A stretch of DNA of 64,000 nucleotides from a virus. Its lineage: Duplodnaviria > Heunggongvirae > Uroviricota > Caudoviricetes. The stretch is from IMG/VR virus record IMGVR_UViG_2718218100_000003, one strand, 5' to 3'. Of this stretch, positions 6,001-9,000 are shown piece after piece. How positions within the stretch are numbered: position 1 is the stretch's first letter; every line of letters begins with the position of its first letter. Position numbers: made by a program.

Positions 6001-9000
6001 AGCCAGCAACAGGCCACCCTGCAATGGCATATTGCATGGTGTGCTCCTTATTTATACATAACGAAAAACGCCTCGAGTGAAGCGTTATTGGTATGCGGTA
6101 ACGCCGCGCTCAGGCGGCTTTGATAGTCATATCATCTGAATCAAATATTCCTGATGTATCGATATCGGTAATTCTTATTCCTTCGCTACCATCCATTGGA
6201 GGCCATCCTTCCTGACCATTTCCATCATTCCAGTCGAACTCACACACAACACCATATGCATTTAAGTCGCTTGAAATTGCTATAAGCAGAGCATGTTGCG
6301 CCAGCATGATTAATACAGCATTTAATAAAGAGCCGTGTTTATTGAGTCGGTATTCAGAGTCTGACCAGAAATTATTAATCTGGTGAAGTTTTTCCTCTGT
6401 CATTACGTCATGGTCGATTTCAATTTCTATTGATGCTTTCCAGTCGTAATCAATGATGTATTTTTTGATGTTTGACATCTGTTCATATCCTCACAGATAA
6501 AAAATCGCCCTCACATTGGAGGGCAAAGAAGATTTCCAATAATCAGAACAAGTCGGCTCCTGTTTAGTTACGAGCGACATTGCTCCGTGTATTCACTCGT
6601 TGGAATGAATACACAGTGCTGTGTTTATTCTGTTGTTTATGCCAAAAATAAAGGCCACCATCAGGCAGCCTTGTTGTAAATGTTGCAGGTATCAAGTAAG
6701 TAATTAGATGGAGCGCCATAAATTATGAATTCATCGTTTGTCGGGTCCATCTCCATCTCTTGTCCTATTGCCATTCTTGCGTCAGTGTCGTCAGCGGCGA
6801 AGCATAAAACAGCCCACGCACCCATTGTTTTAAAAAGAACTGCAATTGGCTGTGGTTTTACTGAATTTGCGTTAGCGCGAAAATCACAAATCGCACTTTC
6901 ATGAAATTCCATATATCACCTCAAATAAGTGGTTTGCTGCCTAATTTCATTTTCTGGCGACCAACACAAGTCATCTTGCTGTCAGTTGTTTGGATTTACG
7001 GTAGCCTGCCGCGTAAAGAGCTACATTTGGAAGACAAGTTGAGCCTTCATATTTTCTGGTCAACGTTGTCAGTGTTATTACTTCTGCTCTCATTGCTGGT
7101 TTGCGTTTGCATTGTAAGACCACTCGTGATGGGGTTGGCCTGTGTAGTTTGTCGGAGCTAATCGCCTCCTGACTTTGCAGGTTTGCGCGACGAGCTCTAC
7201 GGCGAGAAGCTGCGGTGCCTTTAAATTCTGTTTTTCTGGACATAGATTCCTCCCGAATAAACTTTGGCGATGCAATCTCGAAGCTCCTCCTGAGACGGTT
7301 GCTTCGGCATTGCATCCCACAGCTTATGTGGTTGGGTGATCTGGCTTTTCAGCCACGTAGTCGAGAGTCGACGTTGTTTAAAGAGCCTGCCAGTCTGTTC
7401 CATTTGGCTTCCAGCGTCCTGCTGATGGTTAAATAGTACGATATGTACTTAACTTGGTCAATACAATTTGTTCTAAAATGGGGCGTTTTTTTACAACGCT
7501 TTGTATTTAATAGTATTGTTTTTTAGCGTGGGTGTATTGCCTCGGCGATGTAAGGAGAGATCAGAATTGCGTTGTTTAGTGAGTTGTATCTATTTATTTT
7601 CCAATAAATACAATTGGTTATGTGTTTTTTTGGGCGAGAGGAAAAGAAAACCCGGCATGGAGGCCGGGTTGATGATTAGCGGTGTGGCCTTGAGCGATAA
7701 TGCTCACACACATGTTCAAGATTTCCATGCCTTATCCGTTCATAGGCATTCACATGAACTTCTCGATCGAATTGGTCATTCAAATTGTATGTAGACATCT
7801 GTGTTTTCTCATATTGGCGGCAGCCCTACAACCGCTTGAAAAAATGTACCAGACGCGCTAAGGTTACATCGCAAATATTGTGTACCTTAACAAGGGCTCC
7901 TTTTGGAGGCTCTGGTTAAACAGCATCAATGTCGGACTGGGGAGTTGGACATTGTGCTGAATGCTTTTGCATTATTGAGGCCGAACGTAAACCTTCAGAA
8001 TTGAAGAGATGCGTTCGGCTTCTTCGTTTGTGATATCGTTAGGAATGCCTTTAATCGTTACTGTAACCCCTGATTCAGGTCGAAGAACTACTGGAAGATC
8101 ATAGGTATGAAGTGCATTAGCCTTGCCTTCGACTTTTGTTGGTTCGCCAGTCAAATCTTTTTCCTCACTGGATTCTTTGTCAATCGGAGTGTATGGGATT
8201 TCTTCACCAGACTGGAAAGCTACAAACTTTTTGATTGCACTTTCCATGCGGCTTTTATATGCAGTAATGCTGCTGTCGCTAGGCTTCGGCTCAGTTGCGT
8301 TGATGTATCGCTCGGCAAGCTCATTCACATCAAGCTGAGTAACATCACCCATTTCCTCTTCTTGGACTACCGTTAAGAGGCGAGCGGATGAGTTTTTTAA
8401 ATTTCGAGCGGTGGCCTCCTTCATTATGTTCAGCGACATAAGCTCTTCAAGGAAGTCCTTGAATGCCTGCACGCTAACGTTTGACTTTGCCATTTGCTCT
8501 CTCTCTAAGTTATTGACTCAGATCGAGTTTATCCAGGAATTGATTTGCATGCAAGACTCAAGTCTTGAGAATTTCCGTTCAAGATCCACTCTCAATAAAA
8601 AAGGCCGCACCTCTGCGACCTTTCATCTCCTAAATCTCTTTTCTCTTACCTAAAGAAACAGCAGGCTGGGTCAGCCCTAACAACTTCAAGTGCATCGGTC
8701 AGAGAAAGCTCCGTGCTATACAGGTGTTATTTCATATCTTTTTGCATCCAATAAATTTTCCATCTGTCCAGAGAGCGGATGCACTTGATTCTTGTTGATG
8801 GCAGGACGTTTTTTCACCTGCCTCACCCTGCCATACAGGACGCTGCTCACCGATATCTATCGTCCGGTCATTGATGTTATAGACAATATCCAGATCATTA
8901 CGGATATACTCAGATGGCCTTATGCTTTCAATGAATAGATGAACTTCTTTTTGACCGCTTGATACTCATGGCCATTAAACTCCATCTATCCTCTTTACCC

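Follow-up and report, generated by a model that had tools for sequence, protein, structure and literature searches.

Several described systems bear on the locus analyzed here. The slot between the repressor gene cI and the leftward operator and promoter (OL/pL) holds rexAB in lambda, nun in HK022 and bstA in BTP1, whose exclusion or abortive-infection functions are known for those genes only. In P1/P7 immI (c4 RNA-icd-ant) and in the RNA-based immunity of P4 and N15, a structured RNA lies on the transcript upstream of a small open reading frame (ORF), as in the cassette described below. Among proteins, FliZ is a DNA-binding transcriptional repressor that acts at promoters (PMC3367168). Here we analyze the corresponding slot in a 64,000-nucleotide (nt) stretch of Caudoviricetes DNA, IMG/VR virus record IMGVR_UViG_2718218100_000003 (hereafter the window), in which an ORF of 173 amino acids (aa) at 7972..8493 on the minus strand lies between cI and OL/pL/nutL/N. 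The gene is already known as a hypothetical protein, and FliZ, the recombinase-like MrpR and SroF, morons of the cI-pL interval and repressor-effector pairs are known as kinds. As judged from sequence comparison, the unit to which the gene belongs is an autonomous cargo cassette of about 980 bp (7644-8621, minus strand), of which the 173-aa ORF is the first gene.

Borders, distribution and expression of the cassette

Over positions 7400-9000, the window matches Stx2a_WGPS8 at 100% and VT2-Sakai at 99.9% identity, and positions 3941-10461 align to Sakai NC_002695.2 at 99.4% identity with no indels; the window is a Stx2-converting lambdoid prophage with an immunity region of the VT2-Sakai/Sp5 type. 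The 173-aa ORF is H0093 in AP000422, ORF b63 in AP005153, ECs1184 (ECs_1184) in Sakai and ORF23 of Sp5. On the minus strand, cI (8995..9648, or 9696) is followed by a 375-bp gap, a hairpin at 8594-8620, the 173-aa ORF, a 40-aa ORF (H0092), a hairpin at 7649-7670, three OL operators with pL, nutL and N. The first-pass annotation had placed a single gene in the position equivalent to that of rexAB; the slot between cI and OL/pL/N was correctly recognized, but the unit also holds a structured RNA of about 175 nt and H0092.

Comparison by blastn with Salmonella prophages returned one block, 8621..7644 of the window, which runs at 85.5% identity from hairpin to terminator between unrelated flanks. 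Both flanking hairpins had been proposed earlier as terminator-like, and both do fold stably. The upstream intrinsic terminator (8594..8620, minus strand; -15.9 kcal/mol, z score -3.9) is followed by UUUUUUAUU (U6AUU) and goes unlisted in a simple terminator scan. Since a DUF3024 pseudogene lies between cI and this hairpin, the latter can be taken as the terminator that closes the cI-(DUF3024 pseudogene) unit, and it forms the left boundary of the cassette; the same hairpin is found 3' of the intact DUF3024 gene of SH2026Stx1 and occurs in two copies in locus L015. The downstream intrinsic terminator (7638..7670, minus strand), composed of a stem at 7649-7670 and a U-tract, was returned by the terminator scan with 8 pairs, 6 of them GC, and the tail TTCTTTTCCT; it folds at -14.3 kcal/mol (z score -5.4) and is annotated as a rho-independent terminator in AP000422. 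It forms the right boundary, and homology blocks end or start at it, at 7644 against Salmonella and at 7671 against strain NCTC9022.

Homologs of the 173-aa protein (40-79% identity) are encoded in the equivalent slot of lambdoid prophages of Proteus/Morganellaceae, Salmonella, Serratia and Yersinia and of SH2026Stx1, where the order is cI, none to two cargo genes (DUF3024, a 345-aa gene and others), the family gene, OL/pL and N, and where the types of cI, Cro and N differ. Fifty-five viral contigs have an equivalent layout, as do Proteus, Serratia, Yersinia and SH2026Stx1, in various genome slots; outside the lambdoid prophages just named, viral contigs carry the cassette in nin-type early regions, near an integrase or near tail genes. 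A scan of the genome contigs returned one locus only. Within E. coli, cI is found at 99% identity or more in 451 complete records and the cassette gene in 234. In two strains, NCTC9022 and TUM13773, an unrelated cargo of two genes is flanked by the cII-cro-cI segment of the window (96.8% identity) and by its terminator-OL-pL-N segment (93.2%, resuming at window position 7671). The existence of prophages with the same immunity and other cargo indicates, therefore, that the cassette is exchangeable hot-spot cargo and not a part of the immunity switch, and it bears out the cargo-slot, rexAB-equivalent character assigned to the position earlier, in that prophages with the same cI, OL and N carry different cargo there, as moron and defense hot spots do. 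Like a moron, the cassette is a discrete block that some related phages have and others lack, and its regulatory signals form its borders. The terminators are strong, the promoter is predicted and conserved, and transcript and protein have been detected in uninduced Sakai.

The alternative cargo of NCTC9022 and TUM13773 (L102/L103, 4242-5548) codes for a 185-aa hypothetical protein and a DUF1828 protein, and it terminates at the same AACCCGGCC...GGCCGGGTT terminator. The downstream terminator seems to be a shared junction for cargo exchange. In Yersinia phage YP3 (L099, 2501-3140) a homolog with 40% identity lies beside xis and gin with only the first ~75 nt of the leader RNA, and a small ORF is missing. 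Here the cassette seems to be truncated, and the protein can persist without its partners.

Expression in the lysogen, which had been predicted from the position of the gene, is corroborated by two published data sets: an Hfq-CRAC cluster, EcOnc20, maps to the transcript of the gene, and TRAPP detected the ECs1184 protein in uninduced cells. In the latter study, published in 2025, ECs1184 was recovered with RNA from Sakai at a false discovery rate of 0.065, and its signal in the PNK assay was not above that of the sfGFP control. Genetic data come from a K-12 lysogen of Sp5, from which ORF23 (ECs1184) and ORF21 (ECs1180) could not be deleted with cloned flanks in pDONR201 and a sacB suicide vector, and the authors suggested a role for ECs1184 in stable lysogeny (Mondal et al. 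2016, PMC5155283). ECs1180 (H0090 in AP000422) is an 83-aa ORF at 6661-6912 on the minus strand, just downstream of N, with OL/pL/N between it and ECs1184.

The suggestion of Mondal et al. amounts to an accessory component of the lysis-lysogeny switch that keeps Sp5 repressed, and it can draw, besides the refractory deletion, on the fact that the cassette always abuts OL/pL in lambdoid prophages of the Enterobacterales. We consider it improbable, given that prophages with a 99%-identical cI and the same OL/pL/N carry unrelated genes instead, that elsewhere the cassette resides in nin regions, beside int/xis or beside tail genes, that its promoter palindrome (see below) is unrelated to the annotated CI operators and that the failed deletion has a plausible technical cause. 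The idea that the cassette is tied to OL/pL was rejected on account of the same nin, integrase-proximal and tail-proximal slots.

The surroundings of the cassette show further differences between the prophages. The DUF3024 pseudogene (8652-8985, minus strand), which contains two frameshifts and one in-frame stop, in translation has 80-85% identity to the 113-aa product of the intact SH2026Stx1 gene; it is unmarked in the annotations examined, and Proteus prophages have an intact DUF3024 gene at the corresponding place. The window departs from Sp5 in its replication region beyond cII (about 10460-12790), which is unlike that of Sakai, and in its stx2 region (20951-22795), which has just 96.7% identity to Sakai stx2AB; the window also lacks the sequence of AsxR, an anti-small RNA that Sakai carries 3' of stx2B.

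A two-domain protein with an integrase-type fold

The product of the 173-aa ORF is acidic (pI 4.85, net charge -8.4), as the first-pass annotation had it; acidity is no trait of the family, however, as most members have a basic linker. The accompanying statement that the protein has no recognized domain holds for sequence libraries. The best match in Pfam is Phage_int_SAM_1 (PF02899) with 14.4 bits (E 0.047), below the gathering threshold of 22.3 bits, and 6 of 36 family members match the same model weakly, with a best E of 3.6e-4. NCBIfam and, by sequence, PDB gave no match above threshold, the protein belongs to PHROG 2602 ('unknown function'), and the small ORFs likewise drew only PHROG families of unknown function and nothing above threshold in the other libraries. 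PADLOC-DB 2.0, which includes RexAB, returned no match at E<=1 for the 173-aa protein, for H0092 or for a 44-aa ORF. A Foldseek search of viral structures (BFVD) was uninformative, with a best E of 0.06.

The statement does not extend to the predicted fold, which is recognizably of the integrase core-binding (CB) type. In an AlphaFold2 model based on the family alignment, residues 8-94 form four helices (pLDDT about 88), residues 102-127 a disordered linker and residues 130-165 a beta-hairpin with a helix. On the strength of this model, the N-terminal domain (residues 8-94, window 8212-8472, minus strand) is a CB (SAM-like) four-helix fold, followed by a disordered acidic linker (about residues 101-128) and a beta-beta-alpha C-terminal domain (about residues 129-173, window 7975-8109, minus strand) that is conserved, confidently folded and foreign to integrases. 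No catalytic domain of tyrosine recombinases, with its R-K-H-R-H/W-Y active site, was found, nor was there a match to the Phage_integrase model of Pfam; since the chain stops at residue 173, with only the 45-aa beta-beta-alpha domain after the linker, the protein is not a recombinase. The modeled CB fold points to nucleic-acid binding or regulation and not to a Rex-like mechanism.

A profile search of 1.84 billion representatives placed 662 clusters (at 50% identity) in the family, and among the best 150 of these nearly all share a length of 157-208 aa and the two-domain architecture. Invariant or near-invariant positions comprise T28, R30 and K33, Y79-x-S81-R82 and, in the C-terminal domain, P134, R138, P151, E158 and A159; the first three sit in the motif TARNLKNS, which is constant across all gammaproteobacterial members. 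Substitutions between the window gene and its homologs in Salmonella, Yersinia, Proteus, Serratia and locus L049 show a third-codon-position bias. These data bear on the explanation that the gene is a functionless, decaying N-terminal fragment of an integrase. That only the CB domain of a tyrosine recombinase is present and that the neighboring DUF3024 gene is a pseudogene would agree with such a remnant, but the size of the family and the uniform length and architecture of its best 150 clusters, the C-terminal domain that integrases lack, the third-position bias, the conservation of promoter, RNA and partner ORF and the detection of the protein in cells leave it scarcely credible. Family size, C-terminal domain and substitution bias effectively refute an integrase pseudogene.

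The structured RNA, the micro-protein and the promoter

The stop codon of the 173-aa ORF is followed by a structured leader or intergenic RNA of about 175 nt (7799..7971, minus strand). It comprises, all on the minus strand, hairpin P1 (7921-7959) right after the stop codon, P2 (7848-7916), a multi-branched long-range stem that encloses two hairpins, a U-run (7839-7844) followed by CAAG, hairpin P4 (7817-7834) and the Shine-Dalgarno (SD) sequence GAGA (7807-7810). The window RNA and its relatives from Salmonella, Yersinia and loci L036 and L044 share the order P1, P2, UAGCG, a U/A-rich stretch followed by UCAAG, P4 and SD, and their alignment contains nine pairs with compensatory changes, most conspicuously in P2. 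Folding of 7640-7974, the 335-nt 3' part of the operon, yields -104.8 kcal/mol (z score -4.95). A second group of 16 RNA sequences from Proteus, Serratia and viral contigs, analyzed with RNAalifold, has 30 pairs (12 of them compensatory), with 95.8% of cells paired as against 35-46% with slid partners and a covariation score above that of all 500 shuffles. In the viral collection, an exact-motif search returned 22 instances of the RNA, every one of them (22/22) directly 3' of a family gene. The covariance model of the Proteus/Serratia/viral-contig RNA (R1) leaves the window RNA undetected, even with filters off, and we therefore regard the latter as an architectural equivalent with a covariation of its own, the homology of the two groups being unproven. 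No Rfam family was matched: the window gave only a sub-threshold score for GadY (20 vs 45 bits), seven related loci gave no match, and C4 was not matched.

A pairing of the U-run (7839-7844) with the SD region around P4 is predicted and, if the model is correct, would restrict translation of H0092; the short local fold of the U-run/SD/P4 region is no better than shuffles (z score -0.55). Among close relatives, the loop of P1 occurs in both orientations, as exact reverse complements (L012/L037/L044 and L051-L066): ACTCCCCAGT vs ACTGGGGAGT in one RNA lineage and CTCGCCAAAG vs CTTTGGCGAG in another. Its occurrence in two RNA lineages makes the inversion recurrent, and hairpin template switching during replication, or a switch, could account for it.

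EcOnc20 was reported as an uncharacterized Hfq-CRAC cluster of Sp5 at 1255628-1255753 on the minus strand (Tree et al. 2014, supplementary table). Converted to window coordinates, it lies at about 7705-7836 (minus strand), over the P4/SD region and the 5' two thirds of H0092; the conversion uses AsxR as calibration (a shift of 136-142 nt to NC_002695.2) and a window offset of 1248059, and carries an uncertainty of a few nt on the assumption of a constant shift. In the searchable literature after Tree et al., EcOnc20 appears only in a review table. The known small RNAs of Sp5 (AsxR, EcOnc27, StxS and Pas) were considered as identities for the window RNA and rejected, as all of them map to the late region.

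The second ORF of the cassette, H0092 (7676..7798, minus strand), encodes a His/Cys-rich micro-protein of 40 aa. It matches phrog_21154 (E 5e-8) and is conserved in Salmonella, Yersinia and SH2026Stx1. It is annotated in AP000422, the VT2-Sakai record of 2000, and absent from the current RefSeq annotation of Sakai. The homology search returned just 3 database proteins, a scarcity that we attribute to the fact that such small ORFs are left uncalled in most genomes. In all the cassette lineages compared, the stop codon of the family gene is followed by a non-coding stretch of 155-180 nt, an SD-preceded small ORF and a AACCCGGC...GCCGGGTT terminator. The small ORFs fall into three types: type A, to which H0092 belongs, has the motif V.V..Y.RIR.G.LEHV..H.RS.P, type B has four cysteines and a weak treble-clef match, and type C corresponds to phrog_33859. 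By eye, the core motifs of the three look related. Synonymous and non-synonymous codon differences stand at 106:49 for type B and 904:253 for type C, with a strong third-position excess, and on these counts the ORFs of both types are evidently under purifying selection. Neither the small-ORF type nor the RNA variety follows the protein tree, all combinations of them being present, and near-identical C-terminal domains occur with type A in Salmonella and with type C in Proteus.

Upstream of the 173-aa ORF lies a predicted sigma-70 promoter (8526..8554, minus strand) with the -35 element TTGCAT (8549-8554), a 17-nt spacer and the -10 element TAAACT (8526-8531). A promoter-like sequence had been noted at this place by the first-pass annotation, and so had a 16-bp palindrome. 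The promoter is weak with respect to the consensus (3/6 and 4/6) and falls under the threshold of a consensus scan, but it gains credibility because its architecture recurs at related loci: down to 33% protein identity, homologous loci present a terminator, a repeat overlapping a TTGxxx -35 element, a 17-18-nt spacer and a TAAACT or TAGAAT -10 element at the equivalent position, so that the layout is conserved across lineages. The palindrome CAAGACTCAAGTCTTG (CAAGACT-CA-AGTCTTG, 7-2-7) is located precisely at 8552..8567 and is a candidate operator, its promoter-proximal arm overlapping the -35 element; it exists as a single exact copy in the 64-kb window, in which no further copies that might mark other sites of a regulon were found. 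Its core, AAGACT-N1-2-AGTCTT, is kept in the E. coli, Salmonella, Yersinia and Proteus cassettes, while other lineages have different repeats at the equivalent -35 position.

Directly 3' of the -10 element, near the expected transcription start, there is a GATC (8521..8524) within TCGATC. The promoter regions of 19 related cassettes together contain 34 GATC sites vs 7.6 +/- 2.7 in shuffles, an enrichment of about 4.5-fold that could reflect either Dam/SeqA-sensitive expression or the true binding motif of the TARNLKNS helix. In these cassettes the sites often form CGATCG pairs with a spacing of 12-31 bp, which lie on or close to the -35 element, the -10 element or the start site.

A possible regulator-effector module and its relation to known systems

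The reading that we tentatively favor is that an autoregulated CB-domain regulator keeps a micro-protein effector at a low level, with the RNA and Hfq as a second gate, in a cargo module of the addiction or defense type. The 173-aa protein would carry out no recombination and would act as a sequence-specific nucleic-acid-binding regulator, in the manner of FliZ and the recombinase-like phage repressors, most likely sitting on the repeat/GATC element of its own promoter and thereby setting a low and steady level of the operon. A CB domain that lacks the catalytic part can still bind nucleic acid, and FliZ offers a direct precedent. The structured leader and Hfq would further gate translation of the micro-protein, the U-run pairing with the SD region around P4, and the micro-protein would be the effector. 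Loss of the regulator would de-repress the micro-protein, which would explain the failure to delete ECs1184 from Sp5 lysogens, and the cassette as a whole would benefit the prophage as an addiction- or defense-type module outside the lambda-type switch. We favor this model because it accommodates the promoter repeat and GATC, the Hfq-bound structured leader, the conserved micro-protein and the undeletable upstream gene.

Several points weigh against it. A net charge of -4.5 makes the CB domain of the window protein acidic, which is unusual for a DNA binder, and the palindrome may not be the site of the protein, because the -35 repeats vary by lineage but the presumed recognition helix, TARNLKNS, does not. 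H0092 is not hydrophobic and showed no likeness to known toxins in library searches, and the shuffled small-ORF types argue against a specific protein-protein neutralization. Distant family members in the alphaproteobacteria are orphan chromosomal genes with neither RNA nor micro-protein. Finally, the failure of the deletion may have a technical cause, in operator titration or unrepressed pL-N on the constructs, because both refractory ORFs flank OL/pL/N.

As regards the target of the protein, the shared CGATC motif or the RNA may be alternatives to the palindrome. A translational regulator that binds its own structured leader, for instance at P1 or P4, and so governs the stability of the RNA or the translation of H0092 would be of the latter kind, and we deem it rather unlikely. 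A direct role in superinfection exclusion or anti-phage defense, in which the protein, with or without H0092, would target either infecting phage DNA or some phage function, like RexAB, Nun and BstA, is somewhat less doubtful, although still unlikely. It is in keeping with a cI-pL cargo slot that holds alternative cargo in prophages of the same immunity, with lysogen expression from a predicted promoter of its own and with the occurrence of the cargo in several accessory slots of diverse temperate phages. On the other hand, the protein matches no PADLOC model, is without an enzymatic or membrane domain and has no reported phenotype, and its orphan homologs are widespread on alphaproteobacterial chromosomes outside recognizable prophages. 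The first-pass annotation had pointed out that genes in this position typically mediate exclusion or lysogenic conversion, and the searchable literature holds no report of either for this cassette. The defense reading is compatible with the regulator-effector module and does not exclude it. More speculatively, and with odds that we consider long, a catalytically dead integrase-derived protein, an Hfq-bound RNA from outside Rfam and interchangeable zinc-type micro-proteins of 40-57 aa might together make up an addiction or abortive-infection switch, whose GATC promoter would sense the state of methylation or replication and to which the P1 inversion could add a heritable on/off layer.

A family combining CB and beta-beta-alpha domains was not found in Pfam, PHROG annotation, PADLOC, Rfam or the searchable literature, and the same sources yielded neither the strict coupling of such a protein to a covarying RNA and an interchangeable micro-protein family in gammaproteobacterial phages nor a report that assigns EcOnc20 and H0092 to the ECs1184 operon. 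Among the early genes of Sp5, a clinically central Stx2 phage, only ECs1184 and one other could not be deleted, and ECs1184 has until now been a hypothetical gene with no conserved domain. The analysis provides it with a predicted fold, with partners (a covarying RNA that coincides with the orphan Hfq-bound EcOnc20 and the conserved H0092) and with the status of exchangeable cargo, so that the vague notion of being required for lysogeny becomes a set of specific, experimentally approachable questions. Should the regulator-effector reading be true, the cassette would represent a new phage use of the recombinase CB scaffold, a new RNA family and a new micro-protein family in a known defense and conversion hot spot, with a possible bearing on the stability of Stx prophages and, hence, on toxin release.

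Among known proteins, FliZ of E. coli, Salmonella and Xenorhabdus resembles the 173-aa protein in its size (~180 aa; FliZ has 183) and in having a CB SAM-like domain as its only recognizable module, with no catalytic domain. It differs in that its CB-like domain is C-terminal, behind a Cys-rich N-terminus, whereas in the 173-aa protein the CB domain is N-terminal and followed by the beta-beta-alpha domain. FliZ scores 55 bits with Phage_int_SAM_1 as against 14 bits for the 173-aa protein, and hhalign aligned the equivalent region of the two without significance (probability 0.5%, E 0.13). Moreover, FliZ is a core-genome gene of the flagellar regulon and not phage cargo, and it has no RNA or micro-protein partner. 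The tyrosine recombinases (lambda Int, XerC/D and IntI) have the core-binding four-helix domain in common with the protein but add the catalytic domain that is missing here, and no att-like site was identified at the cassette. MrpR of SPbeta and SroF of phi3T, in turn, retain a full-length inactive recombinase fold, in contrast to the 173-aa protein.

With regard to operon layout, type II toxin-antitoxin and repressor-effector pairs such as RacR-YdaS/T and DicA-DicB share with the cassette an upstream product that combines a domain of nucleic-acid-binding type with a disordered segment, a promoter palindrome, a small, co-oriented downstream ORF and an upstream gene reported to be undeletable. 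The cassette departs from them in the 175-nt structured RNA between its ORFs, in a downstream product of 40-57 aa that is soluble, His/Cys-rich and outside the known toxin families, and in partner types that are shuffled independently of the protein. The P1/P7 immI and P4/N15 systems differ in turn, since the RNA of the cassette has no C4 or Rfam match and no antirepressor lies downstream. RexA/B, Nun and BstA have no relation in sequence or fold to the 173-aa protein; as a genetic unit, the cassette has in common with rexAB, nun and bstA the slot, a terminator and a predicted promoter of its own, expression in the lysogen, presence or absence between phages and boundaries set by hairpins.

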